This document shows positions 1,709 to 58,697 of a stretch of 64,000 bases of DNA, in pieces. This stretch comes from a virus. Where the stretch lies: the IMG/VR virus record IMGVR_UViG_3300032285_003468, positions 5,214 through 69,213 of that record. One strand, written 5' to 3'. Below the pieces are notes generated by a model that saw nothing but the letters and a program-made list of their open reading frames with translations, was not told where the DNA came from and did no database searches. Each line of letters starts with the position of its first letter. The stretch's first letter is position 1. Position numbers and translations under genes: made by a program.

Positions 1709-3874
1709 ATGAAATTGTTCTCTCTCCCAAACCTTACCAGTCACTCGGTCTCCATCGCCGACGACGTAACCCTAAGCACCGCCGTAAATCCCCGTCCAGG
1801 AAACCTGGACAAGAAGCAGTACAACGACTGGTGCAGAGCCTCCTCAACGCAGAGTAACTTTATCTCCGCATGGGAAGGTCTCAACCCCCAGGGACGTGTA
1901 GTAGCTCAGAACCCCGGCCGCTTGCTGCATGGGATCATTGCCGACTACGACAACCCCAACGCAACGTCACTTCTACAAGATCTCCCAAAGAACACCGGAC
2001 ACCTGCCGACATGGGTGATCGATAGCTTTACCCCCGGGAAGTGCCGTCTGATCTGGCCCTTCGAGGTTCCTGTCAACGCCTACAACCCGGAGCTGACAAA
2101 AACCTTCCTGAAGGTTCTCAACGAGAAGATCAAAATTAGCGAAGCACTGCCCGGATTTGATGAATCCAGTTGGAAAGATACTCAGTACTTCGAGATGGGC
2201 ACCAACTGGAGGAACGTCACCGGGGCCGCCCCAATCCCAGAAGCCGTTCTACTCCAATGCATGATGGAGGCAGGAATGCGCAAGCCTGTCGAAAGCGGCG
2301 ACGTCGAGATCCCCATGGATGTCGTTGCCGAAGAGGTGGAGAAGCGTTGGCCAGGTCGTTGGCCAGTTGGTAACTTCATGGAGGGTGCCGTAGGACCCCT
2401 CTTCTGGGTAGAGCCTTTCGTCAATCACCGTAGCTGCTCAGTCGCCGCCAACGGAATGATCTGCTATTCCGACCGCGCCGCCAGCAACTTCATGCCATGG
2501 CGTGCAATCTTTGGAAACAAGTTCGTCGAGAAATACGAGCTAGACCGCGCTGCCAAGCTAGCAGACATGTTCTGGTTCGACGGAAACAACTACTGGTCAG
2601 ATCGCAATACCCCGGGCTTCTGGAGGACTGTTAACCGAACCGACGCTCAGATCCCAATCAAGAAAGCCGGGTGCAACCCCAGGCCGAAGAAGGGTCAGCA
2701 GGTCTCAGAGGTTGAAGAAGTTCTCAACTACATCCAAGAGCAGCGCCGGGTGAACTGCGCGGTACCCCTCCTCTTCGAGAGTGAGAAGCTAGTCGAATAC
2801 AACGGAAAGCGACTCCTCAATATCTCCAGCAAGCAGGTAATGCAGCCAGCGGAATCCGGAGACCCGGAACAATTCCCTTGGATCTACGACTTCGTGATGA
2901 ACGCCTTTGACGGCGCACAAAGCGGTGTCCCGGCCAAAGAATACTTTATCGCATGGTTCAAGAGGTTCTACGAAAGCAGCTACCAGCAGGACCCACAACA
3001 GGGTCAGTCGATCGTCATCGCTGGCGAAGCACACGCCGGTAAGAGCTTCTTTGCCAACTGGATTATCGGGAAAGCAATGGGCGGTAGCTGCGATGCCTCC
3101 GATATCCTCCTGGGAAACACCAAGTTTAACGAGAATGCCGCACATAACGCCGTATGGCTCTGCGACGACGCAGTAGCCCAGGGCGACTTAAAGACACGCC
3201 AGGAGCTAGCCCTCCGTCTCAAGGCAATGGCAGCCAAACCAATGATGCGCTACGAACCCAAGTTCGTGAACGCAGTCGACCTACCCTTCAAGGGCCGGGT
3301 TATCGTCTGCGGAAACATCGATCCGGAATCCCTGCGCATCCTCCCCACCATGGACGGAACGATCAAGGACAAGATCATGCTCTTCCGTATCGACCCCAAG
3401 TATCGGCCGCATTTCTTCAACAAAAACTCCGACAACGAGAGCCGGGCGGTAAACGAATTACCCTTCTTCTTGCGCTGGATCCTCAACTACGAAGTAGACT
3501 CCAGGGTAGTAGACCGGGACAACACTCGCTTCTCAGTCAAGAGCTTCCACCACCCAACCCTCGTGTTAGCCGCAAACGTGGAACAGCCTGAGGCACGACT
3601 CGCCGAAATCATCTCTCTCACAATGGAGACGATCAAGGGAGACGTGAAGAAAGGGGCGGTAGTAACAATGACCTCCACCGAGTTCTGCCAGGCCGTCCAC
3701 ACAGCCCAGCTTAACTCCCACCTTCAACAACTTGGGGGAATCCGGAACGTTGGGAAATTACTTCACAAAGTGGTCGAACAGAAGTTATCACCTTTCCTGA
3801 CACAACAACCCAAAGTATCCGGCGGATATCACAAGTACACTTTCGACCCCCACGCAGAGGACATAACTCCATGA
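1709..3874 (+). CDS. Primase-helicase (N-terminal primase-like, C-terminal SF3/DUF5906-like NTPase)
   Basis: 721 aa directly after the polymerase; Walker A GEAHAGKS, Walker B VWLCDD; N-terminal IIADYD. Confidence 0.8.
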   Translation: MKLFSLPNLTSHSVSIADDVTLSTAVNPRPGNLDKKQYNDWCRASSTQSNFISAWEGLNPQGRVVAQNPGRLLHGIIADYDNPNATSLLQDLPKNTGHLPTWVIDSFTPGKCRLIWPFEVPVNAYNPELTKTFLKVLNEKIKISEALPGFDESSWKDTQYFEMGTNWRNVTGAAPIPEAVLLQCMMEAGMRKPVESGDVEIPMDVVAEEVEKRWPGRWPVGNFMEGAVGPLFWVEPFVNHRSCSVAANGMICYSDRAASNFMPWRAIFGNKFVEKYELDRAAKLADMFWFDGNNYWSDRNTPGFWRTVNRTDAQIPIKKAGCNPRPKKGQQVSEVEEVLNYIQEQRRVNCAVPLLFESEKLVEYNGKRLLNISSKQVMQPAESGDPEQFPWIYDFVMNAFDGAQSGVPAKEYFIAWFKRFYESSYQQDPQQGQSIVIAGEAHAGKSFFANWIIGKAMGGSCDASDILLGNTKFNENAAHNAVWLCDDAVAQGDLKTRQELALRLKAMAAKPMMRYEPKFVNAVDLPFKGRVIVCGNIDPESLRILPTMDGTIKDKIMLFRIDPKYRPHFFNKNSDNESRAVNELPFFLRWILNYEVDSRVVDRDNTRFSVKSFHHPTLVLAANVEQPEARLAEIISLTMETIKGDVKKGAVVTMTSTEFCQAVHTAQLNSHLQQLGGIRNVGKLLHKVVEQKLSPFLTQQPKVSGGYHKYTFDPHAEDITP

Positions 3875-4062
3875 AATACCGAATTACAAAAAACGGAAAC
3901 GACGAGTATTTTATCGAAAGGAAAGTTTTATTCAGTTGGGGCCGGGTAGGGGGAGTTTACGACAACTATCGATATTACTCTTTGCGGGGAGCCCAGGAAG
4001 CATTGAAAGAACTTCTAGGGAGCCGAAAGTTTACCGTCGTCTGGGAAGGAGAAGTCAAATGA
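3871..4062 (+). CDS. Hypothetical protein
   Basis: 63-aa ORF with ATGA overlap on the primase-helicase stop. Confidence 0.7.
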   Translation: MKYRITKNGNDEYFIERKVLFSWGRVGGVYDNYRYYSLRGAQEALKELLGSRKFTVVWEGEVK

Positions 4063-4277
4063 GCGCATACACCGAGACCAACTTCAACGCCTGCCTGGAT
4101 CACATCATCGAGATCAAGAACCAGCGTGACGAAGCGATCCGGATTGCCACCCTATTAGAAATGTTGGCCGAAGAGGATCTGCCGGAGTACCATCCGGAGT
4201 TCGGACTACTGGGGAAACGACTCTCGGACCTGAAGCTCAAGGTAATTGCGTACCAGAACAAGCTACAGAAAAAATGA
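4059..4277 (+). CDS. Hypothetical protein
   Basis: ATG at 4059 overlaps the previous stop (ATGA); 72 aa MSAYTETNF... Confidence 0.7.
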   Translation: MSAYTETNFNACLDHIIEIKNQRDEAIRIATLLEMLAEEDLPEYHPEFGLLGKRLSDLKLKVIAYQNKLQKK

Positions 4278-4713
4278 ATTTCGGAAGACAGACGGGTGTC
4301 CCGATTGGGGCTGCCACGAGTGCAAAATACAACGAGAACAAAAAAACCAATAGGTTATTTGAGGTCTTGGGAGTTTTGGGGAAACGCTCGGAACAACTTG
4401 AAGCAACCCGTCTGTCTTTCGTTCTCTTCTGGCACCGGTGGGCATCAACTTGCAGCTTGTGTAATGAAATGATTACCCGGCGTTAATAAAACGACGCCGT
4501 ATTTTTAACAGGGTCAGATAAGCACAGCATGCTAGGGTTACTATTCATAAGTGGTGGAAGTGCTTTACCATCAAAGTCTAGTAGGGTGTCCGGTTTATTC
4601 AGACTTGTCAGAAACTCTGTATAGTTTTTCCGTCAGATGTTCCCGATCGCGCACATTCGTTATGAGTTAACGATCATAAACAGGGATTATACCCGCTCGG
4701 TAATAAAACCCCA

Positions 4714-4771
4714 GAAAAGGCGAGTTAAGGCACCCGATCGGGGTTAAAACACCCGAAAAGGCGAGTTAAGG
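4714..4771 (+). repeat. 17-bp direct repeat GAAAAGGCGAGTTAAGG x2
   Basis: Exact copies at 4714-4730 and 4755-4771, just upstream of the promoter at 4809. Confidence 0.9.
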
Positions 4772-4808
4772 GGCCAAAAACGTAACGCAATCCAAGTTAA
4801 CGGAAACC

Positions 4809-4836
4809 TTGACAGATATTGATAAGTGCATAGGAT
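4809..4836 (+). promoter_or_regulatory. Sigma70-like promoter for the candidate ncRNA
   Basis: TTGACA (4809-4814), 16 nt, TAGGAT (4831-4836); no credible ORF downstream. Confidence 0.6.
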
Positions 4837-4840
4837 TTGT

Positions 4841-5111
4841 AACGCCTGACCACTTTGCGGCCAATGGACGCAGGAGCGAGGGCTTTGGATTCCTCCCGGG
4901 GATCTTCGGTGAACCGGTGCGCTGATCGAAAGGTTGGCCGTTAAAATCGGGGGAGGCAGTGAGGGGTCTTGCGTAGGCGGGCAAACCACCGTTGTGTTAG
5001 GCAAATGCCGAAGAGATAGCGACCTGACCCTCCCCCGACCCTTGTAGTAGTTCACAAGCATATCTCCGTTCACGGTAGCGTAAACGCTACAACCCTAGTG
5101 AACGATTTTTT
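4841..5111 (+). ncRNA. Candidate structured non-coding RNA, about 270 nt, with pseudoknot
   Basis: Several complementary helices (4843-47/4975-79, 4868-75/4967-74, 4921-27/4932-38 with GAAA loop, 4947-56/5029-38, 5013-20/5058-66, 5067-73/5098-5104); bounded by promoter and T tract. Confidence 0.6.
5067..5111 (+). terminator. Intrinsic terminator-like stem closing the ncRNA
   Basis: CGTTCAC/GTGAACG stem enclosing GTAGCG-TAAA-CGCTAC, followed by ATTTTTT. Confidence 0.55.
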
Positions 5112-5399
5112 GGGTTTTCGTGCATTAGATCATAGCCTAATCGAACCGACGATTGTTTAGATTATAGTCGATAGATGAAGCGTGAGTTGATTATCTCGCG
5201 CAGAAATAATCACCCATGAGGGGAATTCTAATACCCTGGATAAACAACCCGGCCCGATTGATTCGATCCGTTCGATCTCCGGTTTGCGTTTAAAGAAGAA
5301 GTTAAGTAATTGTTATATTGCAACCCTGCATCCCCGTGTCCCTGATCCATTATTTCCGATGTTTGCTAACATTGTGCAGGACTTAACTTTCCTGGGTTG

Positions 5400-5790
5400 C
5401 AGGGTTGCAGGGTACTTAACGTATTTATTCAACTAAAAAGTGGGGGATGTAATTTTCATCCACCATGGGTTTTGGCTCATCCACCAATTTACAAGACACT
5501 GTAGACAAGGACTTTGCGACAGCCCAGGTGGATTGGTGGATGAAGTGGGTCATTTTGGAACCGCTAATAATATGTAATGTGTATAATCATAATAATATAA
5601 CATCTATCTTTTTCTATATCTATTCTATTCTATCAATTTTAAACATTTTAATCCACTCATCCACCAATAGAAAAATAAATATATGAAAATCAAGGACTTA
5701 GCTTTGGTGGATGAAAATTTTTATATCCACCAGTTGATCCACCACATCCACCAATCGTCTTTGGCCTGTGTCTGGTACCCTGCAACCCTG
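5400..5790. repeat. Origin-like region: 16-bp inverted repeats around about 9 ATCCACCA-type iterons and an AT-rich core
   Basis: CAGGGTTGCAGGGTAC (5400-5415) and GTACCCTGCAACCCTG (5775-5790) are perfect reverse complements; ATCCACCA or TGGTGGAT near 5458, 5479, 5534, 5659, 5705, 5725, 5737, 5746; AT-rich 5565-5690. Confidence 0.75.
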
Positions 5791-6138
5791 TCGCATTTGT
5801 GCCCGGCGACCCGGTACCTAGAAAGCCCCGCCGTGGCCCGTATTGCCGCCCAGGACTCCTCGGAACGTCTCAATAAGGTGATGACAGCGGACCCACCCCA
5901 TTTTACTCAGACGGCTTTTTAAAATGCCCCGTAAACGTCTTTAAATTGTCTGTATCGAGTTTTTCTCTGTTACCAGGTTGCCCTGGTGCAGGGTTTTTGT
6001 CCGGCCTGGTCAGCCAGCCTGGGGTTTGTATACCGGAACATCCGGAACAAAAATTTTGCTAACCCTTCATTCTACTAGCGCTGCCTCGTGGGAGCCCCCT
6101 ACCCACCCAGGGGACGGCGGGGGGTCCTGGCTCTCTGA

Positions 6139-6771
6139 TCAGACACAACCTGGGCCGGTCGCGTCGGGGTCGTCGTCAGAGTCGGAACCGGGTTGGGTAC
6201 CCGGTGCCCCCCTCTGTAGGACCGGGGTTGGTGACGCCTCGGTGACGCATTCCTCCACCATCAGACCCTCGACTATGTCATCTTGCGAGGCCCGGAGTCG
6301 GTCGTTGACTACCTGAAGCTGAACGATGGTGGATGCCTTGCTCTCCTCTGTATCGAGGCCCAGAGCCCGGCGCGTCAGGTCGTCGAGGATCTTCATATCC
6401 TTCCAGTTTCGGGGCGGTGCGATCACCGACTGCGAGAAGATCTTGAAAAACTTGTCCGCCGCCCTCTCCCGGTAGCTTTTGGACAGGGTCTCAAGGTCCG
6501 TTGTAGATGAAGCGCCGGGTCCCGGAACCAACACTCCCTCATTAAGCTGTTCCGAAAGAGAGGAATTCTCTGCAACCCTGTTTTCATGCGCCCGGGTGAC
6601 CTTTTGAATCTTATTCGCGAGTCTCTGGGGAGTGTTCCAATGCTCCCGGGATGATCGCATCCGGATTGTGTGGGGAGAGATGTTGAAGAGCTTGGCGACT
6701 TCCTGTTGGCTGGTGCCTTTTTCGCATGCTTCGCGGATCTCTTTCCAAGGTACGTTTAGAGCTTTTCCCAT
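6139..6771 (-). CDS. Terminase small subunit-like HTH protein
   Basis: N-terminus WKEIREACEKGTSQQEVAKLFNISPHTIRMRSSREHW has the typical TerS HTH pattern; acidic disordered tail. Confidence 0.7.
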   Translation of the reverse strand: MGKALNVPWKEIREACEKGTSQQEVAKLFNISPHTIRMRSSREHWNTPQRLANKIQKVTRAHENRVAENSSLSEQLNEGVLVPGPGASSTTDLETLSKSYRERAADKFFKIFSQSVIAPPRNWKDMKILDDLTRRALGLDTEESKASTIVQLQVVNDRLRASQDDIVEGLMVEECVTEASPTPVLQRGAPGTQPGSDSDDDPDATGPGCV

Positions 6772-6797
6772 GAGGTGTTATGTGGTGGAGGCGTTGC

Positions 6798-6826
6798 CTC
6801 ATACCCTGCAACCCTGCATCTGTCAA
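6798..6826 (-). promoter_or_regulatory. Putative terS promoter with a CCCTGCAA repeat in the spacer
   Basis: Minus strand TTGACA (6826-6821), 17 nt, TATGAG; the spacer is the TACCCTGCAACCCTG motif also flanking the origin-like region. Confidence 0.45.
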
Positions 6827-6884
6827 CACTGAAATCCTGCGACCGGGAGGCAGGTTGCAAGGTTACCGGGCATGGAGAGTTACC

Positions 6885-7052
6885 ATGAACAACTTGATCA
6901 ACATCCTCTTCTTCTCCTTCATCATCCTGACCATTGCCGCTGGCGCTTGCTTCATCCTCTCCGCTGTCCTTGCAAGCCCTGTCCTGCTTGTCACTTGCTT
7001 TGCTCTCTTTGTTTTGGAGTTGTTCCTCGGCCTGATCATCTCCTGCCTCTAA
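6885..7052 (+). CDS. Small membrane protein
   Basis: 55 aa, almost entirely hydrophobic (MNNLINILFFSFII...). Confidence 0.6.
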   Translation: MNNLINILFFSFIILTIAAGACFILSAVLASPVLLVTCFALFVLELFLGLIISCL

Positions 7053-7101
7053 ATCACCCGGCATTAACTACTGACAGAACATCAACCCCAACCCTGAAAC
7101 C

Positions 7102-7332
7102 ATGACCAACATCAAGAAAGCCCAAGTTGAAATTGCCCACGCCATCCGCGCCTACATCAAGGAAGCAAAGAGCCGGGGCGTAGTCGGGGTGACCCTCGAT
7201 CACCTCTTCCTTTGCGTCCCTGCTGTCCCGGAGGCTTACCGCGCCTTCGCCGGGACCAACGGACGCTACTTCTACAAGCAGGAATTCTACGTTGTCGCCG
7301 GGAAGGTTGCCCGTCACTTCCTGATCGGCTGA
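7102..7332 (+). CDS. Hypothetical early protein
   Basis: 76 aa between repeat copies 7056 and 7332. Confidence 0.8.
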   Translation: MTNIKKAQVEIAHAIRAYIKEAKSRGVVGVTLDHLFLCVPAVPEAYRAFAGTNGRYFYKQEFYVVAGKVARHFLIG

Positions 7333-7360
7333 CCCGGCATGTAACCCTGAACACCTCACC

Positions 7361-7453
7361 ATGACCACCACCATCCAACCTCGCCCACCTATCGGAGCCG
7401 CTGAATACTCACGCATTCTTCAGGCTAAAATCGCCTCCGCTCGTAAATCCTAA
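7361..7453 (+). CDS. Small peptide, 30 aa (MTTTIQPRPP...)
   Basis: ATG 29 nt after repeat 7332 with CACCATG context; below ORF-track cutoff. Confidence 0.55.
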   Translation: MTTTIQPRPPIGAAEYSRILQAKIASARKS

Positions 7454-7473
7454 CCCCAACACCCTGAACCACC

Positions 7474-7623
7474 ATGCATAGCATCCAAGAAATCCGATAC
7501 GCTAATTTAAACGCGGCCCGAAAGGCCCGGGCCCGGGCGCTGGTAAAGCGCCGCGAGGCGGCCCAGAGGGTGATTGCCGAGAGGCTCGCCATCTCCCGGG
7601 GAATCCCTGTCTGCCACCGATAA
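7474..7623 (+). CDS. Small basic protein, 49 aa (MHSIQEIRYAN...)
   Basis: Same A/C-rich leader (CCCTGAACCACCATG) as its neighbours. Confidence 0.6.
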   Translation: MHSIQEIRYANLNAARKARARALVKRREAAQRVIAERLAISRGIPVCHR

Positions 7624-17307: not shown

Positions 17308-17535
17308 ATCTACCCGGTGGCAGATACCCTCTCCCCACTCGTTCTGTTCGCACATCTCGTCCTGTAGGTAGCCTGACAAATCCTCGGGCATTACCATGTG
17401 GTTTGCCGTCATGTAGGCTCGGACGTTTTCTAAAAGCTCCGGGAAGAAGTCTGCCTTGAACCGGATTCCATGTTTCTTGCAGTACCACCGGTACCCTCCT
17501 GGGGGGATTAGGGATATGTCGTTGAGTCTTTTCAT
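17299..17535 (-). CDS. Hypothetical late protein
   Basis: 78 aa coupled to the stop of the giant gene; PPGG and Cys motifs. Confidence 0.7.
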   Translation of the reverse strand: MKRLNDISLIPPGGYRWYCKKHGIRFKADFFPELLENVRAYMTANHMVMPEDLSGYLQDEMCEQNEWGEGICHRVDSI

Positions 17536-20500
17536 TTCATGGCTAATTGGGTCTTCCGGGTGGCCAGAACGATCTTCGGGTCAGCGGGTTTGATCTTCCC
17601 GGAGATCATCATCTTGTCTACCACCGAGGCGGCGTAGAGGTTGGCAGCGCCGTTGACGTTGGTTCCCTGGAGGAATGATTGAGCCATGTCCTGGGGCATC
17701 TTGACGAGCTGTTGCACGGCCTCCGGTGTCAGTACCTTGCGGAGATACTCTCCACGGGCTAAGACAAACTCCCTCCAAGCGTCGTTACCGAGGTCTCCGA
17801 CCCGGGCCATCGTACCCTTGCTGTCTGCAAATACGGGGGTGCTCTTGTTGGCTTTCGGAATGAAGAGCCCGTGCTCGGAGAGCGGAGTGAGAACCGGGTG
17901 ATTCTCGGTCGACGAGTGGATCCAGCGATCGAACACGGGGTCCAAGGCGTTCTTGGTGATGGGCTCTCCAAGCTGATTGAGGGCGGGCTTGTCGTATCCG
18001 ATGTAGGCAGGAGAGAAAGCCCAGAGCTTGTTGAGGATCGAACTTTGATCCAGGACCGGAGTCTTGTGTTCGGGGTTGATAAGACCCTCTCCGACCTGAC
18101 GTGCGGTGCGGAGGATCGAGGGGTTGGTGAACTGAGTGGCGGGGCTGAGGACAAAGTTCTCGATTCCGCGCACACCCTTCTCTCCTTCTCCGCCGAAGAA
18201 GATGTCGACAAGGTTCTTGGCTCCGTTGAGGAAGTGGTGCTGGAGGGGGGCGCGGAAAGCCGCGACGGCCATGCCGAGCAATTTCTCCTCGCTCATTGAA
18301 ATGGTTGCACCCGGAGCGATCCTTCCGTTGACCCTCGGAGGAGGATTGTTGTAGACCACCTCGTCGTGGATTTGCCCCAAGACGGGCAGGAGTAGGTTAA
18401 AGCCGGGGATTGCCTTGTAGGGGAGGACCTGGCCACCGATGCGGATTGAGTTGGGCATCCATCCTGTGGACATCAACTGGCTTTTCTTGGCGGCATCCTT
18501 CGGACCCTCTCCATAAACCGCAAAGGTAGGCGAGGGCTCCCCGGTCTCAAGCTCGTGATTCAATTCCTTGAGGAAAGCTATTACGACTCCTCCCATGAGG
18601 GTTGTTCCAATTACCGAACGCGCCATCAAGGCGGTGGTCCTTGGGTCACCGGGCTGATAGCGCTCGTGAGCATAAGGGGAGTCCGAACCAAAGAAGAGGT
18701 CCGAGGGGTTGATGTTCTTGGCCTTGAGGAAACCGAAGGGAGTGTACTCCAAACCAGAGTTGGTGACGGTGGCCAGGATTCGGATGAAGGGGAAGCAGTA
18801 ACGCATGACCGGGAACTGCTGAGTCATCTTTCCAATGGCGGCCGCAGTATACCCCGCAAATCCCGTCATCTTGCCCTTGAGGGTGGCCTCCTTGGCAAAG
18901 TCCAGGGCGTTCTCCTGCACGTCTGGATTGACTGCTTCGGGCAAGTTGTTCTGGAGGTGGAGCTGATCCAGATGCCAGGCTTTAGCAAACTCTGCTGTCT
19001 TCTCGTCAAAGCCCTTAAACATACCTGCTTTCGCATCGTCCTCCAGTTGCTTGCGGGCAGCGGCCATCTCTTGCTGAGTGGGCTCGAAGATGCGGCGGAC
19101 CTTCTCGTCAAGCTCGCGTCCCTTGATTCCTCCTTCGAGGTAGGCGGCACGGGTGGCAAGACGCATGGCAAGCTCCCGGGTGGGTCCGAAGTTGATTGCG
19201 TCAAAGGCCATCATGGCCCTGCCACCGATTGCGGCGAACCGGTTGTATCCCCGGAAGAACTTTCCTGCGGCTCCGTCTCCACCCCAATCGCTGTCCGCAA
19301 TCGCGTCGGATCCGCGCTTGGCAATACCCATCTCACCAGCAATACCCATCTCACCAGTGCGGAGAGATCCGATCGCCTGTTTGATGTGAACGTTTCCACG
19401 GGCACCACCGGCACCCGGCAGAACCATCGAGTTGAGGAAGTCTTTCATGAACCCAAAGACCTCGGCCGTCGAAGCCCCGTTTGCCATAGCCTGGTGCATG
19501 TGTCCGTAAGCCAGGGAAGCACCCATGACTCGGGAGTTGAGTAGTCCACTGAACCCGTGCGTCATGAACGTCTGGGGCCCGGTCAGAATGAGCGAACGGA
19601 AAATCTCGGGACCGAGTTGTGACACGGCCTTCCAAACTTTCTGCCACCCATCAGCCTTGTCGAAGTCGGCCTTGAGAATGTGCATGGCAAGGGCCGAGCG
19701 ATACCGGGCCTTCTCCCATTCCTTCAGGGCCCCCTCGGGCATGTTGAGAATTCTGTTGGCGGCCTGACGCATCTCTCGGGCGGTCTTGGCGTCGTATCCG
19801 GTAATGCCGAGGGACTCCAGGACTTTCTGGTCGAGGAAATCCGCGTCGTAACCACCCGTGCGGAGCATGCCAGTCAGGGCGTTGACTACGTCTTTGGATT
19901 TGCCGCCGAGTAGATCCCCGTAAACCTCGTCCACGAGATCCGCTGCGAGACCCTTTGCCATGCGGCCGTGGGCCTGCTCGTAGAGATTGCGAAGCTGCTG
20001 ATTGAGGGCGGTCACCTTGTTGGGGTTAGCCTTGTCTCCTCCCAGGGCTTCCTTGACCACCGACTTCATGTAGTCGTAATCGGAATCGAGCATGCCCAAG
20101 TTGTCCGTAATCTTCTTGATGGTATCGGGATCTTCTATTCCGAAGGTCTCCAATAGTCTTCCTGCGGCCGACACCGCACGCTCAGCGATCTTCTGTTTGG
20201 CTTCCGCCAGGCCGTCGCGAAGCTGGTCCATGTTGATCTTCTCGGAAACGGAATCCTCGACGGTCCCTCCGATGATCGCTTTCTGGAAAGCGCGGATGTA
20301 ATCCTGTGCGCTGAACTTTGCGAGCATGCGGCGTAGCGACATTGCCTGTGCAGACTCGGTTCCGACCGCGATCGAAATACCCTCTGCCTCGCGGCGGTAC
20401 TTGTCGTAGCTGCGAAGTAGCGTGGGGTCAACGGGTTTCCCTGCGGCAATGTTGGCCCGGATCTGTTCGGCCCTGGAACCGAACTGACTTGCAAGGATGG

Positions 20501-23500
20501 TAGCCACCGCTTGCTTGTCTTTCGGTGCGATCTTTGCGTAGGGCTGCTTGATTTTATCGAGAGCGCCACGCAAATCGTCCTTGTAATTGTTAATGAAATT
20601 CTCTGCCTCGGCGGTAGTTTCCTCCTCGGTCGTCGGGATGTAGGTGAAGGGATCGTTCTCGTCGTTGTAAATTGACTCGGAGACCTTGGGCGCGGAAGCT
20701 CCCTTGCGGTACATGATCTCGTCGTCTCCTTGAGCGACTTTGCTTTCGACATCTTCGACCGAGGTTCCTTTCTTGGGGAAAACGTCCACGTCGAAATAAT
20801 GAAGTTGGCCGTTTCGGTCCCTCATTACGTTCTTCGGTCCCTGGTCGTAAATCCCAACGCCCAATCCTTTGTGCTCCCAAATGTCGGCGTCACGGCTTCC
20901 GTCCACACGGGTGAAACCACGGGCTTCTAGGTCTTTGGCGATTTCCTTGCGAGTCGCCGGGCGTCCCTCGAAGAAAGGTTGCGAGGTGACGACTTGAGGA
21001 AGCTGCCCCTCTCCGGTATTGACCAGGCCCTCGAAACGAGTGCCGGTTCCGAAGATCAGGTTGTTGAGGTGGAGCGAGGTGAGATAATCGTATGCTGATC
21101 CCTTGGCACCCAGAGACCCGTCGCCGATGTCGTCGGCGTGTGTAATCTTTACGATCCTGTTTGACTGAGGATCCAGGTATGTCGTGTGCTCGGCTCCGGC
21201 GATCGGTTCTCCGTCTTTGTCTCGGAGTAGGGTGCGGTCGTTTACAATCCGCTTAAAGAAAGCGGGAACTATGTTCAGCCCAGCTTTATCGACCGCTGCT
21301 TTTAATAGTCCGAAGGAATCTGAGAGGGAGCGTTGCGTGCGGCCATTGCTCGTATTTCCTGCTCCGACATCTTTGGCCTGTTTTGCAAGCTCTCCAAGGC
21401 CCGACGCTTTGCGGTAAGGGCTTTCACGATTGAGTCCTTCTCGGTAGAGGAAACCGACTTGTGGTGAGTTTTCGTCATGAGGGATACTATTATACTCTTT
21501 TTCCGCCCCAGAGTCAATCCCCGATTTGGCGTACAGCGGTTCCTCACTTAGTTCTTGACTTGAACTTTCCTCCGGGGGCCCCGTGCTGGGTGCCTCCTCG
21601 GTGCCAGTCTGATCTTCAGCTACTGGCTCTGGGAATCTGCTGAGGCGCTCGTCTCGGGTTCCTGAGAGGGACTCGGGGGCGTGTTGCTCGAAGGCTTCGT
21701 TGACGATCTCGGCGTACCGCCGACGAAAGCCAAGGATGTCCCGTATTTTGCTATTGCCTCCTCCGGAGACAATTTGCTCACGGTATGAATCCCCTTCTGG
21801 ATGGTCTTGCCAGTTGTTTTCATGAGAGTCTACAGTAGTCTGAACGTGATCCACCTGTAAAGGAAATTCGTTCTTGGTTCCCCAAGCTAGGATTGCGTTT
21901 TCGAGTTTTCCGGCTTGCGCTTCCGTCAAGCTCTTTGGCGTGTAGGTCCCTTTCTTGGTGCCTACAATCATAGCTCTCTCGCCGTCGCGGTAAGGCTGAA
22001 CCGTCATCCCAGATAGACCGGCTTCTTTAGCCATAGAGTCTAACTGCTCGGGTGTGAACTTACCTCCGCCCTGGGGGTGGACAAATAAAGCAAGGCTATC
22101 TTTTCCGCCCTTGTCGAACGTGGCCGTCATGGTTCCGCCTTGCTCGGAGACAAGAGCCAGCGCGTTAGACAGCATCCCGGCAGCCTCTCGGCTTCCGAGT
22201 ACCTCAATCGCGGTGCTGGGATTAGACGCACCTCCCCATCTTCCGTAAGTCGAGGAAATTGATCTTATCCGGAGAGAGCCTCCGATGATCTTGGCTAGCT
22301 CAGGCACGACTTTAGAAATGACTTGAGTCGTGATCGCGGCCTGCTTTTCGGGAGCTAGGTTTGAGATATCAGGGAATGATCCGGGCAGCCTGTTTCCGTA
22401 CGAGTAGCTTACCTCGGCGTAAATGTGGGACGTGTTCTGAGCCATCGTGCTGGCGATGGTAGATTCAGGCAACCCATACTGGCGAAGCAGTCTCATCCAT
22501 CCTACGGCTTGCACTTCGGACGGGGTCCAGTTTCCGCCTTCCCAACCAACCTCGTTAAGGTGCTTGGTGAGGTCGTTGCCCCACTCGGAAATTCCTTCGT
22601 ACTGACCCGAGCTAGGAGATCCCACTTGATCGACACCGAGGGGGATTGGCTTCTTGCCCTGAACTTTGACGCTGATCTTAGACGGCTGAACGACTTCTTT
22701 TCCTTTTACCATCGTCGACTTGGTCTGAATCACGTCAATCTTCACGGGTTTTCCGTCGATAAAAAGATCACCCTCTTCAGCCATTTCTTTAAGTCGAGTC
22801 AGGGTAGCCTGATCAACGTGACCACTATCACGGCCAGTGTGTACGTCGGCGACAAAAGGTGCTCCCGACTCCAGGCTGTGGCCCATGTAGGTGCGGGTCG
22901 AGCGTTGAAATCCAGCGTCTACAAAGTCGGTCAGCTTCTGCCCGAAACCTTTTTTCGGGACCGTGTTGGTTAGAATGCCTTCGATCTTCTCGTCAGCAAG
23001 CCCGCCCTTCTTGCCCGTGCTGATTCCGTTGAGTCGGTCTTCAACGCGGAACACGTTGCGGAGAGCACCGGCCGGTGTCTCGTTCTGCTGAGCGCCTAGC
23101 CAGGCCATCATCATGGTCGGAGCGTTCTCCTCACCGAAGATGCGCGTAAAATTATCCTTCAGCTCGTTGTACCAATTACGGAAGGAATGGATGTCCTGGT
23201 TCGATAGCCACTTCTCGGTCTCTTCGACCCAATCACCATAGGGCTTACCACCGAATTTTTTCTGCGCACCGACAACGATCGGGCGTCCCTGCTTATCCTG
23301 GAACTTGGTTAGGGGATTCCTTGCAATACCGGTTCCTTCACGGCGGTTGTTTTTCTGCGAGACGTTCTTGACGTAATTCCCGGCGGCCTCGCGCAGGAAG
23401 TCGAGACCAGTCTGGTCGAGTCCAGCTTGGCGCATGATCTCTTCTTTGGGAATGGTGTACTCTCTGCCAGAGTTGGTAAGCGTGAGAATGTGATCGACGG

Positions 23501-26500
23501 CATGGGCCAGAGCGGAGCTGTCATTAACCCCAAGACCAAACATACTGCGGACGCCTTTGACGAAAGCATTCCAGGCGTTGATTACTTTAGTGGTATTTCC
23601 AACTCCCTTGTAAAGCTCGTTCGGGTCTTCGATCTCGATCTTGCGAAGCATGTTCTGGAACGCTTCGTTGGACATGGCGTGAGTAACAAACTCTTCGATG
23701 TTGCTCCACCCGTAGTGGTTTAAATCGTCGTTGGTGAGGGCAGCGTCGGCGCGGCGGGTGGCGTCGATCTTTTCGTCAGTTGTGAGACCCTGTTTCTTTG
23801 CTTCCTGGAGGGCTCGATCATAGACTTTCTGCAACCCTGTCACAGCGCGTTTCTGAAGAGCTGACAGGGAGTCAAAGTTTTCGGGTTTCAGGAAACCACG
23901 GATCAGGGAGTGGAATGCTTCGTGCAGGAGGGTCTCTTCGTCGAGCTTTCCGTCCTTACCGGCAATCACATGGATCTCGTTAGTCTTCGGGTCCCAGTAA
24001 CCGAGGATTCCGTCTCCGAGGGACTCGTGGAAATTGGTTTTAGAATTTTCGATAGCACCCGACTGAAGGACCATCTTACCGAGAGCCTTGTAGAGCTTGT
24101 TCTCGGTCGAGTTGACCATCTTCTGGAGTAGCTTCTTGGTGCTCTCGGTACGGAGGATCGGACCCTCTTTGCCTTGCGGGGCGGAGGGGTTGAAACGGAA
24201 ACGGCGTTGTTCGTCGTTAACGTTAATCACGTCTCCCGGGAAGTTGTCCCGGCCGATCATCTGGTTAAGAGATTCGGGGCTCCGGAAAGCCTTTGCAATG
24301 GGGTCGCGGTCGCTCATTGGGCGGGCCCCGTTGCGGGCTGCCTCAAGCGATTCCTGATTCCCTGCAACAATGGACTTCAGCTCCCTGGAGTCCTCTTGCG
24401 AAACTCCGCGATTGGCGATCAAACGGAGTGCGACTGCCATGCGCTTAACGAGATCGTTGTTCTCGTTGCGAACAAAATCCATTGCGTCGGAAATCTGGCT
24501 ATCGCTATAAGATTTTTGAGTTCCCTCGTAGTCGGCTCCGGTGGCACCCATGTCAGGGCCTTCGGGTTCTTCGGGGGTTTCTTCGCCGGTAGCCTGGGAA
24601 CGAACTTCGTCCTTCCAGTTTTCTCCGTCGTCGATTATGGCGGGCCCTTCAGATACTGCTTTCTGATTTTCAAACCCCTCGTTATTCCGGGTCTGAGTTT
24701 TTCCAGTCGCCTGCGCGTTTAGCTTGACCTTTCCGATCGTGTCGGCGGCAGCTTTTAGAAGCAAATTGGCAACGCTGTAGGGAGTCTCGGCACCAGCGGT
24801 AGCTTTTACGCCCTCCTGGCGGCCTTGCCATTTCGCGAGGATTGCCTCGGCCTTGCCTTTGTCGGCGCGGTTCTTGAGATACTTAAAAGTCTCGTAAAGA
24901 GCCCCGTTACGGAGGGCCTCTACAGACTCGGGGCCTACGATTGCGGCCCACTTCGGGAATGTGTCTTGAATTGCCTTGTCGAGGTATTCCCAAAGTCCGT
25001 TGGTGAAAGGCTGCTGGTCCTCGGGGATTGAATTTGCCAGCTTGACCGAGTCCTCGGGCTTGTAGAGATCTAAGACGTCGGTCTTACCGCCGCGCTCGAT
25101 GCTGCGCTTGGCGTCGTGGAAAATGGGTTTCCCTTCCTTGTCGACTCGTCCCGTATCAACGGGTTGGATTGCCGGGGTGGGTGCCGGTGCGATGTCCTCG
25201 GGGGAGAAAGTGTTGCGGTCGTCAACGGGCTTAACCGGCTCGGCGGGTTGTGAGGCAACAGGGTTTCCTGAAGCATCCAATACAACCGGTTGGCTCGGCT
25301 CGGCGGCCGAAGATTCCAAAGGGGCCTCAGGTGCCTGTTCGACGGGAGGAATAACCCCTTCCGAGACGGGCTCAGCGGCCTGTGTGTCAGTCGGGGGCGT
25401 AGTAACTTCTTCAGCGGGCTGAGCGCCCCAACGCTGATAAATGTCGTGAACGGCGCTGAGGTTAGTCGGAGTTCCTCGGGTGGCCTCTCCTCGGGGAGAT
25501 TCACTGACGGGGGTAGGGGTGGGATTCTGGTTAATGTCGGGTCCGACCGGGTATCCTTCTCCGGGTTCCACGGGAGGCACGTACCCTGGCTCCCCGGGCT
25601 CCTGATAAGATCTCGTAAATTTGGTGCGATTTTCAGGCTCTGCCTCAGTCTTGGTCTCAGCAGCGGGTTCTTCAGTTGCCTCTTCAGCCGTACGGTCCGT
25701 AAGGGCGAGTAGCGCCTTCGCGGTCTCCGGTGCGTCGGCCTGGAGGGCGTTGTCAGAGGCAGCCTTGAGCCTTTCGATTTGCTCGGCGCTCTTTTGCTGA
25801 TCCTCTTCGGATAGACCCTCTTCCTTTGGCTTGGCTTCGGCCACGGGCTTTTCCCCTGCGACCTTGCCGCCGGGAGTAAGGCCACCCAGAATCGCCATAT
25901 CACGCATGGAATGCAGGACATCTGAGCCCGTCGGTAGGGGTGTCTCTTCGACGGTCCCGTCTCCGGCGACCGCGTTGATACCCTTACGTGCGGCGTAATC
26001 TGCATACGGGAAAGCGGCACCACCAACTCCGCTGAGAGCGGCTTTCTTGGCGGCTTCTCCAAGACCCATCTTGGCGTAATTTCCGATCGACTTAGCGGCC
26101 ATCCCACCCATGACGCCAGCGTTGCCGATTGCGGCCACATCTTTGTTTTTCTGCTGGGCTTCATTGATGGCCTGGTCGACGCCTGCGACTTGTTCGCCTT
26201 TCTTGATTGCTTTGTCGGTCAGTAGGGATCCAGCAGAAAACTCAAGTGCGGGAAGAGCAAACTCGGCACCCAGGGCTAGGGGAACCTTGACATAACTTGG
26301 GAGGGGGGCTTTGAGAGCGGCTTGAGCCAGTTTTTGGTTAACACCCCCCATAGCATGGGAGGCAAATTCACCTCCCTTCATGGAACCATACGCTTCAGCG
26401 GCGGCGGAACCACCGGCAAGTGCAGCCTGACCGGGGTCAGAGGCAATCTCTTTTCCGGCTCCCTTAACCGTATCCACGGCGCTAGCTAGGACCCCCTTAT

Positions 26501-26657
26501 TGCTTTGGGTGTTTAAGTGGTCCGAGATCTCGTCGACTGAATAGCCCGATTTCCTAGCCCCCTCGACATCAAATCCAGGGTTCTGGGTCGCAAGATAACT
26601 CTGGATTTCGTCGTCGGAGTATCCCGCTTGGCGGGCTCCGGCTAGGTCAAAGGCCAT
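17532..26657 (-). CDS. Giant polyvalent internal virion (ejection) protein
   Basis: 3041 aa; twin N-terminal GYSxDEI repeats; zincin LLHEAFH..EEF; kinase-like G-AEH..VK..D..PKNV..YFDVD; C-terminal GWMPNSIRIG segment. Confidence 0.85.
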   Translation of the reverse strand: MAFDLAGARQAGYSDDEIQSYLATQNPGFDVEGARKSGYSVDEISDHLNTQSNKGVLASAVDTVKGAGKEIASDPGQAALAGGSAAAEAYGSMKGGEFASHAMGGVNQKLAQAALKAPLPSYVKVPLALGAEFALPALEFSAGSLLTDKAIKKGEQVAGVDQAINEAQQKNKDVAAIGNAGVMGGMAAKSIGNYAKMGLGEAAKKAALSGVGGAAFPYADYAARKGINAVAGDGTVEETPLPTGSDVLHSMRDMAILGGLTPGGKVAGEKPVAEAKPKEEGLSEEDQQKSAEQIERLKAASDNALQADAPETAKALLALTDRTAEEATEEPAAETKTEAEPENRTKFTRSYQEPGEPGYVPPVEPGEGYPVGPDINQNPTPTPVSESPRGEATRGTPTNLSAVHDIYQRWGAQPAEEVTTPPTDTQAAEPVSEGVIPPVEQAPEAPLESSAAEPSQPVVLDASGNPVASQPAEPVKPVDDRNTFSPEDIAPAPTPAIQPVDTGRVDKEGKPIFHDAKRSIERGGKTDVLDLYKPEDSVKLANSIPEDQQPFTNGLWEYLDKAIQDTFPKWAAIVGPESVEALRNGALYETFKYLKNRADKGKAEAILAKWQGRQEGVKATAGAETPYSVANLLLKAAADTIGKVKLNAQATGKTQTRNNEGFENQKAVSEGPAIIDDGENWKDEVRSQATGEETPEEPEGPDMGATGADYEGTQKSYSDSQISDAMDFVRNENNDLVKRMAVALRLIANRGVSQEDSRELKSIVAGNQESLEAARNGARPMSDRDPIAKAFRSPESLNQMIGRDNFPGDVINVNDEQRRFRFNPSAPQGKEGPILRTESTKKLLQKMVNSTENKLYKALGKMVLQSGAIENSKTNFHESLGDGILGYWDPKTNEIHVIAGKDGKLDEETLLHEAFHSLIRGFLKPENFDSLSALQKRAVTGLQKVYDRALQEAKKQGLTTDEKIDATRRADAALTNDDLNHYGWSNIEEFVTHAMSNEAFQNMLRKIEIEDPNELYKGVGNTTKVINAWNAFVKGVRSMFGLGVNDSSALAHAVDHILTLTNSGREYTIPKEEIMRQAGLDQTGLDFLREAAGNYVKNVSQKNNRREGTGIARNPLTKFQDKQGRPIVVGAQKKFGGKPYGDWVEETEKWLSNQDIHSFRNWYNELKDNFTRIFGEENAPTMMMAWLGAQQNETPAGALRNVFRVEDRLNGISTGKKGGLADEKIEGILTNTVPKKGFGQKLTDFVDAGFQRSTRTYMGHSLESGAPFVADVHTGRDSGHVDQATLTRLKEMAEEGDLFIDGKPVKIDVIQTKSTMVKGKEVVQPSKISVKVQGKKPIPLGVDQVGSPSSGQYEGISEWGNDLTKHLNEVGWEGGNWTPSEVQAVGWMRLLRQYGLPESTIASTMAQNTSHIYAEVSYSYGNRLPGSFPDISNLAPEKQAAITTQVISKVVPELAKIIGGSLRIRSISSTYGRWGGASNPSTAIEVLGSREAAGMLSNALALVSEQGGTMTATFDKGGKDSLALFVHPQGGGKFTPEQLDSMAKEAGLSGMTVQPYRDGERAMIVGTKKGTYTPKSLTEAQAGKLENAILAWGTKNEFPLQVDHVQTTVDSHENNWQDHPEGDSYREQIVSGGGNSKIRDILGFRRRYAEIVNEAFEQHAPESLSGTRDERLSRFPEPVAEDQTGTEEAPSTGPPEESSSQELSEEPLYAKSGIDSGAEKEYNSIPHDENSPQVGFLYREGLNRESPYRKASGLGELAKQAKDVGAGNTSNGRTQRSLSDSFGLLKAAVDKAGLNIVPAFFKRIVNDRTLLRDKDGEPIAGAEHTTYLDPQSNRIVKITHADDIGDGSLGAKGSAYDYLTSLHLNNLIFGTGTRFEGLVNTGEGQLPQVVTSQPFFEGRPATRKEIAKDLEARGFTRVDGSRDADIWEHKGLGVGIYDQGPKNVMRDRNGQLHYFDVDVFPKKGTSVEDVESKVAQGDDEIMYRKGASAPKVSESIYNDENDPFTYIPTTEEETTAEAENFINNYKDDLRGALDKIKQPYAKIAPKDKQAVATILASQFGSRAEQIRANIAAGKPVDPTLLRSYDKYRREAEGISIAVGTESAQAMSLRRMLAKFSAQDYIRAFQKAIIGGTVEDSVSEKINMDQLRDGLAEAKQKIAERAVSAAGRLLETFGIEDPDTIKKITDNLGMLDSDYDYMKSVVKEALGGDKANPNKVTALNQQLRNLYEQAHGRMAKGLAADLVDEVYGDLLGGKSKDVVNALTGMLRTGGYDADFLDQKVLESLGITGYDAKTAREMRQAANRILNMPEGALKEWEKARYRSALAMHILKADFDKADGWQKVWKAVSQLGPEIFRSLILTGPQTFMTHGFSGLLNSRVMGASLAYGHMHQAMANGASTAEVFGFMKDFLNSMVLPGAGGARGNVHIKQAIGSLRTGEMGIAGEMGIAKRGSDAIADSDWGGDGAAGKFFRGYNRFAAIGGRAMMAFDAINFGPTRELAMRLATRAAYLEGGIKGRELDEKVRRIFEPTQQEMAAARKQLEDDAKAGMFKGFDEKTAEFAKAWHLDQLHLQNNLPEAVNPDVQENALDFAKEATLKGKMTGFAGYTAAAIGKMTQQFPVMRYCFPFIRILATVTNSGLEYTPFGFLKAKNINPSDLFFGSDSPYAHERYQPGDPRTTALMARSVIGTTLMGGVVIAFLKELNHELETGEPSPTFAVYGEGPKDAAKKSQLMSTGWMPNSIRIGGQVLPYKAIPGFNLLLPVLGQIHDEVVYNNPPPRVNGRIAPGATISMSEEKLLGMAVAAFRAPLQHHFLNGAKNLVDIFFGGEGEKGVRGIENFVLSPATQFTNPSILRTARQVGEGLINPEHKTPVLDQSSILNKLWAFSPAYIGYDKPALNQLGEPITKNALDPVFDRWIHSSTENHPVLTPLSEHGLFIPKANKSTPVFADSKGTMARVGDLGNDAWREFVLARGEYLRKVLTPEAVQQLVKMPQDMAQSFLQGTNVNGAANLYAASVVDKMMISGKIKPADPKIVLATRKTQLAMK

Positions 26658-57530: not shown

Positions 57531-58697
57531 ATGAAGACCAAAAAACCCGTCGAATATCCGTTCGTGCAATCTACGCCGTTCGGGAAAGTAAAAATCTATC
57601 GCAACTCCGAGGGAGAGCGCATTCGCTACATCGTGGCGTGGATCGACGCCGATAAAGGCCGCCAGAGGAAAGCGTTCGAGGACGAAGCCCAAGCACATCA
57701 GCGGGCCGAAGAGATTATCGAAGATTTTAAAAAGGGAACCAGCTTTCGCAACAACATCACCGCTGCCAAAGCCGTCCGCATCGCCGAATACGAAAAACTT
57801 CTTGGCGAACACAACGCCACGCTGGCCGACGCCGTCAAACACTTCCTACTTCACATAGAGCGCCAAAACGCCAAGAAAATTCTTGCGGCCGATGCAGTCA
57901 CGAAATTCCTAGAAAGCATCGAGGACAAGAAAACCCGGCACTACGATACGGCGAAATCCGTGTTAACAAAATTCGGCCGTTCTTTTAACAAAACACTCTG
58001 TTCCATCACGCTGGACGAGCTGGACCGCTATTTCCGGAGCGTGTCCCAAACAGGGCGCACTCGAAACAATCACCTCGGGTACGTAAAAACGTTTTTCAAA
58101 TGGGCCCAAGAATGGGGCGGCTACGTGCCCGAAGGTAAAATGCTGATCGAAAAAATAAAACCCTACGAGGAGCAGTCTTTCAAAATCGAGGTGTTCTCGC
58201 CGGACGAAATCAGCAAGCTCCTGAATGCGGCGACCGATAAACTGCGGCCGTACCTGGCTGTCGGAGCTTTTGCAGGAGTTCGTTGCGCCGAGATCTCCCG
58301 GCTCAACTGGGAAGACATTGATTTCGAGACCCGGTCAATTAAACTCTCATCCGAGGTGACCAAAACCAAGCGTCGCAGATTGGCCGCCATGTCAGATAAT
58401 CTGATCCAATGGCTGAACACGCACACCGGGCCAAAAACCGGTCCTCTGGTAGCCGTACCGACCCGGCTGCATAAAGACATAGCCCAACTATGCAACGAAG
58501 CCAAAGTTGCGTGGAAAGATAACGCACTTCGCAAGAGCTACATTTCCTACCGCATGGCCCAACCCGATGCCGACGCCATCCAGGTGTCCAAGCAGTGCGG
58601 AAACAGTCCCGCCATGGTGGAGGAGCACTACAAAGAACTGGTATCGCCAAAAGTAGCAGAAGAATGGTTCTCGGTGTGCCCTACCACTTTACTATGA
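57531..58697 (+). CDS. int: Tyrosine integrase
   Basis: FAGVRCAEI..L.WED, TKT, NALRKS, GNS..V..HY; adjacent attP-like site. Confidence 0.93.
   Translation: MKTKKPVEYPFVQSTPFGKVKIYRNSEGERIRYIVAWIDADKGRQRKAFEDEAQAHQRAEEIIEDFKKGTSFRNNITAAKAVRIAEYEKLLGEHNATLADAVKHFLLHIERQNAKKILAADAVTKFLESIEDKKTRHYDTAKSVLTKFGRSFNKTLCSITLDELDRYFRSVSQTGRTRNNHLGYVKTFFKWAQEWGGYVPEGKMLIEKIKPYEEQSFKIEVFSPDEISKLLNAATDKLRPYLAVGAFAGVRCAEISRLNWEDIDFETRSIKLSSEVTKTKRRRLAAMSDNLIQWLNTHTGPKTGPLVAVPTRLHKDIAQLCNEAKVAWKDNALRKSYISYRMAQPDADAIQVSKQCGNSPAMVEEHYKELVSPKVAEEWFSVCPTTLL

Follow-up and report, generated by a model that had tools for sequence, protein, structure and literature searches.

A conserved RNA core within a chain of RNA modules in the genome of an uncultured phage

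The locus and its relatives

The DNA analysed here (the window, 64 kb) is taken from the record of an uncultured virus, 69,213 bp long and with direct terminal repeats of 123 bp, of which it comprises bases 5214-69213. The element of interest is a structured RNA region on the + strand at 4809-5111, in a gene-free gap that also holds iteron-like repeats. Upstream of the gap the genes lie on the + strand, and downstream there are frames on the - strand. A preliminary description had seen in this region a self-contained, pseudoknotted RNA of 270 nt. Comparison with related phages leads to a different picture. What lies at 4842-5111 is a chain of modules, namely a 5' hairpin, two hairpins termed A and B, a core and 3' hairpins. 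In relatives the modules are exchanged, missing or replaced by tRNA genes, and the stretch makes better sense as an operon built of interchangeable RNA modules. The core module, at 4943-5046, is one copy of a conserved + strand RNA structure.

The first close relative was found through the neighbouring primase-like protein (79% identity). Its RNA region can be aligned with that of the window, and positions 4944-5040 or thereabouts form a near-invariant block. A 20-mer taken from this block matches five viral contigs, and a pattern made from its 3' half matches 35 (24 distinct). The 5' half is present in all 35 of the contigs matched by the 3'-half pattern alone, as GAGGG in 34 and as AAGGG in one. 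A pattern anchored on the loop bases, with the closing helix (P1) left free, matches 52 viral contigs, and a slightly tighter version matches 47 metagenome contigs. The tighter pattern matches three contigs in 596 Gb of bacterial and archaeal genomes. Two of these are coding sequence without P1 pairing and look like chance, and the third, on a contig of a Spartobacteria metagenome-assembled genome (MAG), is genuine. Together the scans yield 86 distinct contexts and 83 distinct pattern instances; loci are referred to by L numbers where they have to be told apart. The 76 instances with at least five of seven outward P1 pairs make up the aligned set, outside which are the second copy of L041, L055, L066, L086, L088, L095 and L126.

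A covariance model (R1) built from the 76-sequence core alignment has a single match in the window, at 4943-5046 (72.8 bits, E 7e-19), and 96 matches in 95 loci over the collection. It finds exactly one copy in each of four other complete phage genomes (63-66 kb). Counting the window's own, five complete phage genomes of 63-69 kb with direct terminal repeats carry a single core each. No R1 match occurs in 150 further genomes of the phylum of the positive MAG. A blastn search with the region and two cores against 50,697 cultured-phage records and E. coli genomes gave nothing relevant (one chance 33-nt match, E 8). The family recurs in many uncultured phages of 40-70 kb and is found in none of the cultured phage records searched.

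Structure and covariation of the core

The core has the shape of a single rod-like hairpin, as judged by covariation and by RNAalifold. It is closed by P1, a helix of 9-10 bp in the family that pairs 4947-4956 with 5029-5038, and in the window this helix is a perfect 10-nt inverted repeat (TCGGGGGAGG and CCTCCCCCGA). Inside P1 there is a CA bulge (4957-58), followed by two covarying pairs, NN/N'N' (4959-60 with 5027-28), and then a conserved internal loop. The 5' side of this loop is GAGGG (4961-65). Its 3' side is AGCGACCUG, aligned as AGCGA (5018-22) and CCUG (5023-26). Within the loop AGG (4962-64) is able to pair with CCU (5023-25). The remainder is an insert, P2, at 4966-5017 in the window's subtype, and P1 is followed by a tail CC (5039-40).

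Covariation carries the case for this structure. Across the 76 distinct cores 95.7% of cells are paired, versus 78.1% in column shuffles and at most 56.2% when the partners are slid by one to three columns. Two-sided changes occur in 12 of the 18 core pairs (213 cells). Another five of the 18 are invariant because the search patterns fixed them and are uninformative. The covariation score is 0.469 as against 0.136 for shuffled alignments and is reached by none of 500 shuffles, a count that is not to be read as a probability since the sequences are related. When RNAalifold was applied de novo to the same alignment it returned P1, the NN pairs and the AGG/CCU pairs, with compensatory change in 9/14. 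The variety of P1 is illustrated by GGGGGAGG/CCUCCCCC, GGGCGGGG/CCCCGUCC, GAUGGAGG/CCUCCAUC and GGAUUAGG/CCUAGUCC, among others.

The preliminary description had also held that the region encodes a non-coding structured RNA on the + strand, and for the core both statements stand. G-U pairs are frequent at two core positions (30/76 and 42/76 sequences). On the opposite strand these would be A-C mismatches, and the RNA is therefore assigned to the + strand. No open frame is common to all 76 cores, the best being open in 46. Core lengths modulo three are spread evenly (25/22/29), with no bias towards multiples of three.

P2 is the variable part. It ranges from 16 to 54 nt across the family and is modular. 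In the window's subtype its base (GUCU 4966-69 with AGAU 5014-17) covaries, changing jointly to CGUC/GGCG in L003 and L006. The interior is identical in L004, L005 and L007, and phages with diverged flanks carry identical P2 inserts. Variants of the interior of this subtype are few (L003/L006 and L038). A frequent P2 type in other loci (L012, L019, L039, L042, L063, L064, L074 and others) has GCGAAAC opposite GAGUAGU. We take this to resemble the AGUA/GAA bulged-G module, also known as sarcin-ricin or loop E.

Modules around the core

Upstream of the core there is a promoter-like site of the sigma-70 type, TTGACA-N16-TAGGAT (4809-4836, + strand), which agrees with the consensus at 10/12 positions. 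Transcription from it would be predicted to start at about 4841-4844. Sites of this kind number six in 3500-7500, versus 3.4 +/- 1.8 in shuffles. The site itself recurs nearly letter for letter, since L007 and L107 share the window's promoter plus a TTTGTAA start region, and a variant, TTGCCC...TAGGGT/TAGTCT, is found in L004, L005, L011 and L031. The earlier proposal of independent transcription can thus be kept in part. A promoter of the RNA's own is probable, and in L107 it stands directly before the core, but a single 270-nt unit is not what the relatives support.

Just 5' of the promoter-like site are two 40-nt direct repeats (85% identical) at 4691-4771, each with a ACCCGNTCGG palindrome and AAAAGGCGAGTTAAGG. 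Words like ACCCG(A/C)TCGG are also seen 5' of the promoter in L005 and L007. The repeats at 4691-4771 may be operator sites of the RNA's promoter.

The first module is a 5' hairpin, H1 (4854-4874, + strand), with stem UUUGCG/CGCAGG and loop GCCAAUGGA. In the window and its five closest relatives 96.3% of its cells (4854-59 with 4869-74) are paired, and two of the six pairs show compensatory change. Stem variants include UACG/CGUA in L005 and UAUG/CAUA in L007. Its CCAAUGG loop recurs in other modules of the family. The 5' modules of the window (4842-4895) are absent from some relatives.

Hairpin A (4896-4917, + strand) consists of CCGG (4896-99) and CCGG (4914-17) around GGAUCUUCGGUGAA. The general form NNGG-GRAUCUUCGGUGAA-CCNN was found in 18 distinct contexts, at 36-60 nt on the 5' side of the core in each. 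Its loop is invariant and its stem covaries (CCGG/CCGG, GCGG/CCGC, GGGG/CCCC, GUGG/CCAC). In several loci hairpin A lies directly 3' of a tRNA gene. Hairpin B (4921-4938, + strand), GCUGAUC-GAAA-GGUUGGC with three G-U pairs, is a variable linker. It is identical in L004 and L011/L112 and shows no covariation within its own type, and across the loci at least five or six types of hairpin occupy the place between hairpin A and the core.

On the 3' side of the core is a weak hairpin, CUUGU/ACAAG (5041-5058, + strand), seen in the sequence and loosely kept in relatives. It is followed by a terminal stem-loop and T6 (5067-5111, + strand; T6 at 5106-5111). The outer stem pairs CGUUCAC (5067-73) with GUGAACG (5098-5104) and encloses an inner hairpin, GUAGCG-UAAA-CGCUAC. 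The outer stem is paired in 77.8% of cells, with a compensatory CAU/AUG in L005, and the figure for the inner hairpin is likewise 77.8%. Of the sequences compared, only that of the window has a T run behind the terminal stem. A simple terminator scan omits 5067-5111, since it accepts loops of 3-8 nt only. From its sequence 5067-5111 is likely to be the terminator of the window's predicted transcript.

How does this picture relate to the single pseudoknotted fold? All of the sequence elements listed in the preliminary description are present, including TTGACA-N16-TAGGAT, the 10-bp pairing of 4947-56 with 5029-38, CCGG/CCGG around GGAUCUUCGGUGAA, GCTGATC-GAAA-GGTTGGC, CGTTCAC/GTGAACG and T6. However, the fold proposed to unite them does not survive comparison. 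Taken by itself the 274-nt stretch folds no better than dinucleotide shuffles (minimum free energy -98.8 vs -92.5 +/- 5.2 kcal/mol, z -1.22). As many as 21 of 200 shuffles fold as well as the + strand stretch, and the - strand has z -0.70. Nor is the region free of reading frames, contrary to what had been stated. There is a 109-aa frame on the - strand (4744-5073) and there are 38- and 37-aa frames on the + strand, none of them conserved.

The long-range pseudoknot itself is not kept in the alignment of the window and its five closest relatives. CGCCT/AGGCG is paired in 70% of cells, GAGATAGC/GCATATCTC (that is, GAGAUAGC/GCAUAUCUC) in 70.8%, and ACGCAGGA/TCTTGCGT (that is, ACGCAGGA/UCUUGCGU) in 89% with no compensatory change. 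The covariation score of the whole structure is 0.077, equal to the shuffle mean of 0.077, and is reached by 255 of 500 shuffles. A nested alternative, with the local hairpin at 4854-4874 and with AGAU (5014-17) paired to GUCU (4966-69), fares quite differently. In that case 90.9% of cells are paired versus 83.3% when shuffled, there are 13 double-change pairs versus 6.1, and the score is 0.288 versus 0.154, with none of 500 shuffles reaching it. H1 and the helix 4868-75/4967-74 on which the pseudoknot depended are mutually exclusive. Because the nested alternative outscores the pseudoknot, the 10-bp pairing is an ordinary closing helix of the core and nothing supported crosses it. For a further suggestion, that GGGAGG can pair alternatively with CCTCCC (4892-97), the partner exists in the window and in L004. 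In no other relative compared is the partner found.

tRNA genes, stand-alone copies and the 3' tail

In the region up to 600 nt upstream of the core, on its own strand, 22 of the 86 distinct contexts have a tRNA gene, at a distance of 65-388 nt from the core. In L008, L011, L021, L026, L037 and others a tRNA gene sits in place of the window's 5' modules.

A second setting is that of the core by itself. Five of the 86 contexts have a promoter-like site whose end is 12-13 nt 5' of GGCA, which makes the first base of P1 the predicted transcription start. One of these, L107, was read directly and the other four were identified by regular expression. L107 has a TTGACA...TAGGAT-TTTGTA promoter directly before P1, and 3' of P1 it has ACCA and then U6. 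All five promoter-proximal copies have N-CCA followed by a U run. Judging by these arrangements, the core alone can apparently be a complete gene of roughly 85 nt. Nearby second copies with other P2 inserts are present in L009, L041, L047 (on the opposite strand), L064 and L107.

The tail was counted over 59 distinct cores. CC occurs within 6 nt 3' of P1 in 49 of them, and it is followed by A in 23 cores, by U in 16, by C in 8 and by G in 2. A run of at least three T lies within 14 nt 3' of P1 in 47/59 cores, and a run of at least four in 36/59.

Several further features are found downstream. In 3/86 contexts (L042, L071, L077) a tRNA-like gene lies 16-20 nt 3' of the core, and two more examples (L019 and L034) were noticed by eye. 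This gene is about 71 nt long and has normal acceptor, D and T arms, with a 4-nt loop of the CAAU type replacing the 7-nt anticodon loop. Its CCAAUGG loop is the one also seen in H1 of the window (4854-4874). ARAGORN labels it tRNA-? with a two-base anticodon, and the L019 copy is unreported by the Rfam tRNA model at E up to 1. Tandem repeats with units of 7-16 nt, such as AAGGCTG, TTAGGGAGT and GAACGGCTAGA, occur downstream of the core in L008, L012, L023, L026, L028 and others. A short tandem repeat lies within 500 nt 3' of the core in 22/77 contexts, versus 6/67 and 5/37 control regions. A palindrome, TTTCGTG-NNNN-CACGAAA, is often found directly 3' of the U run.

Comparison with known RNAs

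The preliminary description could not assign the RNA to a known class, and neither can we. None of the 4227 models of Rfam 15 matches the 64-kb window at the gathering threshold. At E up to 10 the only match in 4500-5500 is a chance one to snR31 at 5440-5473, outside the feature. In 13 other core loci a search at E up to 1 returned only two tRNAs and two sub-threshold chance matches. A tRNA or tmRNA was considered and set aside, as ARAGORN reports none in the window or the whole genome and RF00005 is unreported in 4500-5500 at E up to 10. No description of the motif was found in the literature, catalogues outside Rfam and paper supplements lying beyond the search. By Rfam 15 and the literature searched, the family is undescribed. 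Nevertheless it belongs to a familiar kind, that of additional structured RNAs located within or next to the tRNA operons of phages.

It is long established that the tRNA clusters of phages can include additional stable RNAs, for example species 1 and 2 of T4. These are the products of rnaC (139 nt) and rnaD (119 nt) and, like the core, they are non-tRNA structured RNAs that end a phage tRNA operon. In the T4 record rnaC and rnaD come directly after tRNA-Arg, and rnaD ends in CACCA. We know of no function for either species. Homology was looked for with R1, filters off, and nothing above 7.2 bits (E 1) was found in AF158101 68000-76000. There are differences too. T4 rnaC has a T-arm-like GGGUUCGAAUCCC that the core lacks and, unlike rnaC and rnaD, the new family also occurs as a stand-alone gene.

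A second resemblance is to substrates of RNase P. E. coli 4.5S RNA, the C4 RNA of phages P1 and P7 and the CI RNA of phage P4 are long hairpins with a G+C-rich terminal helix and an N-CC(A)-like tail, and the phage C4 and CI RNAs are cut out of longer transcripts. The core resembles these hairpin-CCA RNAs in its G+C-rich end helix and its N-CC(A)-like tail. However, the Rfam C4 and SRP families do not match the core, and we know of no counterpart of the GAGGG/AGCGACCUG loop among the 4.5S, C4 and CI RNAs. GOLLD and ROOL are large RNAs of phages and prophages that are often tRNA-adjacent and are 5-10 times larger than the core. They share with it the phage setting and a modular build, but their Rfam models match neither the window nor the 13 other loci. 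Intrinsic terminators resemble most cores in having a G+C-rich helix and a U run. They differ in that the "loop" of the core measures 45-85 nt and contains some 20 conserved unpaired bases as well as a modular inserted hairpin.

Small ribozymes were also compared. In the HDV fold, a nested double pseudoknot, P2 and P4 are separated by the P3 hairpin and the return strand of P1. The core has only one base (G4965) between its conserved 5' strand and P2 and no Rfam HDV match, and an HDV-like or theta fold was rejected on inspection, the comparison for theta being with the HDV fold. The hammerhead core has CUGANGA and GAAA flanking stem II. The corresponding positions of the new core read CA-NN-GA and AGCGA, NN covaries with N'N' as Watson-Crick pairs, and Rfam again gave no match, so that this reading too was rejected on inspection. 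Theta ribozymes are of interest for another reason. They are described as self-cleaving, minimal HDV-like RNAs that adjoin viral tRNA genes (PMC10879173). The core is likewise a small conserved element near phage tRNAs, but one that lies 65-388 nt off and not at the tRNA end.

Two other candidates can be dealt with briefly. A kink-turn reading of the loop was rejected by inspection against the consensus. A Y RNA like YrlA would call for a Ro protein, and Ro/TROVE (PF05731) is encoded in none of the five complete core-bearing phage genomes, although the host might encode one.

A tRNA-acceptor-like end?

What might such an RNA be? The reading that we favour, at about even odds (roughly 0.5), is that a modular operon for small RNAs lies in the window and yields a new phage RNA, one whose end resembles a tRNA acceptor. 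In this proposal host RNA polymerase would transcribe the small-RNA operon at 4842-5111 from the promoter-like site at 4809-4836. The transcript would run through H1, a GAGG/CCUC hairpin, hairpins A and B, the core and the 3' hairpins, to end at T6. The functional product would be the core RNA, with or without hairpins A and B, as a stable, tRNA-sized species acting in trans. P1 followed by N-CC(A) would imitate a tRNA acceptor end to processing enzymes, and the core would therefore be expected to mature like the tRNAs with which it would often be co-transcribed. Maturation might involve RNase P at the 5' side when the core lies inside an operon and trimming of the 3' side up to CC(A). Where a U run follows, P1 might double as an intrinsic terminator. 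Perhaps the invariant internal loop is the recognition site for a protein partner and the variable P2 is a decoration or specificity module.

A more specific version of this proposal is distinctly unlikely, yet worth stating. It holds that the core is a new class of tRNA-acceptor-end mimic, made by phages alongside or instead of tRNAs, in which P1-N-CC(A) and an invariant kinked loop would engage an enzyme that reads the tRNA 3' end, the RNA acting as a decoy, sponge or cofactor in the course of infection. The enzyme might be RNase P, the CCA-adding enzyme, a synthetase or, as part of host defence, a toxin by which tRNA ends are modified or cut.

A number of observations weigh against the favoured reading. 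The link with tRNA genes is frequent but not obligatory, as the 22/86 contexts indicate, and by ARAGORN the window's own 69-kb genome is without a tRNA gene. Of the 49 cores with CC, no more than 23 continue with A, and 16 continue with U. The tail of the window's copy reads GACCC without a U run, T6 coming 68 nt later after a stem of its own. Where the subtype is GGAC or GGC, CC is able to pair with an upstream GG, which argues against a free CCA end in those copies. The search patterns themselves imposed part of the invariance of GGCA..GAGGG and of AGCGACCUG..CC in the aligned set of 76. Neither a CCA-adding enzyme nor a Ro/TROVE protein is encoded in any of the five complete core-bearing genomes. 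Moreover, clustering of the open reading frames (ORFs) within 3.5 kb of the core revealed no conserved neighbouring protein, as no cluster is universal. The steps that involve RNase P, a CCA end and protein binding are modelled by analogy on the 4.5S, C4, CI and T4 stable RNAs. The promoter, RNA ends, processing and stability are predictions, the runs listed for window 4300-5900 being DNA only.

The most serious competitor, albeit an unlikely one, is that the core acts in cis at the end of an operon. P1 and the U run would then be a terminator or a protective 3' hairpin, and the loop a processing or antitermination signal on the nascent transcript. This would agree with the typical position of the core as the last element after tRNAs, with the T run of at least three in 47/59 cores, with the excess of tandem repeats downstream (22/77 versus 6/67 and 5/37) and with L010, where the core comes right after the stop codon of an ORF. 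It sits less well with the five contexts in which a promoter-like site would drive the core alone, or with the nearby second copies in several loci. A terminator also needs neither about 20 invariant loop bases nor a modular P2, and in the window P1 is followed by further structure and not by a U run. An improbable alternative keeps the hairpin-CCA precursor and gives it another use, as an antisense or immunity RNA of a temperate phage like P1/P7 C4 or P4 CI, with the P2 loops pairing with targets in the phage or the host. Here the promoter near the sigma-70 consensus, the hairpin-plus-CC(A) design (which fits the C4 and CI RNase P substrates), the integrase at 57531-58697 and the variability of P2, even between nearby copies, would all find a place. 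However, when 4842-5111 was compared with the rest of its own 69-kb genome a single complementary 12-nt Watson-Crick word was found, where about two are expected by chance. P2 is also identical in phages with diverged flanks, and the Rfam C4 family has no match.

The preliminary description had mentioned ribozyme, packaging and replication roles, and no evidence for these turned up in the analysis. That the core is a riboswitch or ribozyme with the internal loop as its active site is highly improbable. Conserved unpaired bases between covarying helices are admittedly the typical design of such RNAs, and theta ribozymes adjoin phage tRNAs according to PMC10879173. Against this, no Rfam riboswitch or ribozyme family matches the 1-kb region of the window at E up to 10 or the 13 loci at E up to 1, and a nested double pseudoknot of the HDV kind is undrawable, P2 being separated by only one base from the conserved 5' strand. 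There is no conserved downstream gene, and cleavage at the 5' side would remove nothing from the promoter-proximal copies. Still less can be said for a transcript of the replication origin that would serve the neighbouring iteron region as primer or activator, a reading to which we allow only a slight chance. The copy in the window does lie just downstream of DNA polymerase and primase-like genes, iteron-like TCATCCACCA repeats follow about 350-650 nt beyond T6 (at 5456-5753), and tandem repeats are commoner downstream of cores than in control regions. But most other loci adjoin tRNAs or genes for the large terminase subunit or ParB-like proteins and not replication genes, the cumulative GC skew has no turning point near 5 kb, and no origin is defined. 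Finally, it is barely credible that the conserved entity is no RNA at all and instead encodes a conserved protein frame or works at the level of DNA, as an operator or att site would. On the - strand all six close relatives have stop-free stretches of 70-117 codons, which might be cited for it. However, the compensatory changes preserve helices and not a reading frame, G-U pairs fit the + strand only, none of the frames stays open through all 76 cores and the inserts do not come in multiples of three.

Whatever the reading, the family is compact and covaries well. It combines some 20 invariant unpaired bases with a modular insert and an end that may imitate that of a tRNA. Its stand-alone copies, each a gene of about 85 nt between a near-consensus promoter and a putative terminator, would be easy to synthesise and assay.

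Neighbouring genes and other features of the window

The protein genes near the core are a mixed collection. By the ORF clusters, a large terminase subunit is encoded nearby at 28 loci, a 206-aa protein at 17, an 804-aa protein at 12, a metallophosphoesterase at 11 and a ParB-N protein at 9. No relationship exists among the three commonest downstream genes, or between them and the window's 210-aa protein.

Beyond T6 the gap contains two sets of repeats. At least five copies of the iteron-like TCATCCACCA(A) lie in both orientations at 5451-5765, with inverted pairs of 11-15 nt, and they overlap frames at 5465-5686 and 5683-5922. These are probably what the preliminary description called the origin. 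GGGTTGCA forms 2.5 tandem units at 5394-5413, and inverted copies are found at 5319-5334 and 5772-5790 (16 nt, 94-100% complementary).

Elsewhere in the window an integrase gene (PHROG 1, E 1.2e-25) is present on the + strand at 57531-58697. It suggests a temperate lifestyle for this phage, whose genome also has terminal repeats and a DNA polymerase gene. On the - strand a 3041-aa open frame at 17532-26657 contains a Kinase-PolyVal domain (PF18762, E 1.4e-7) at residues 1817-1959, and its predicted product looks like a giant polyvalent protein.

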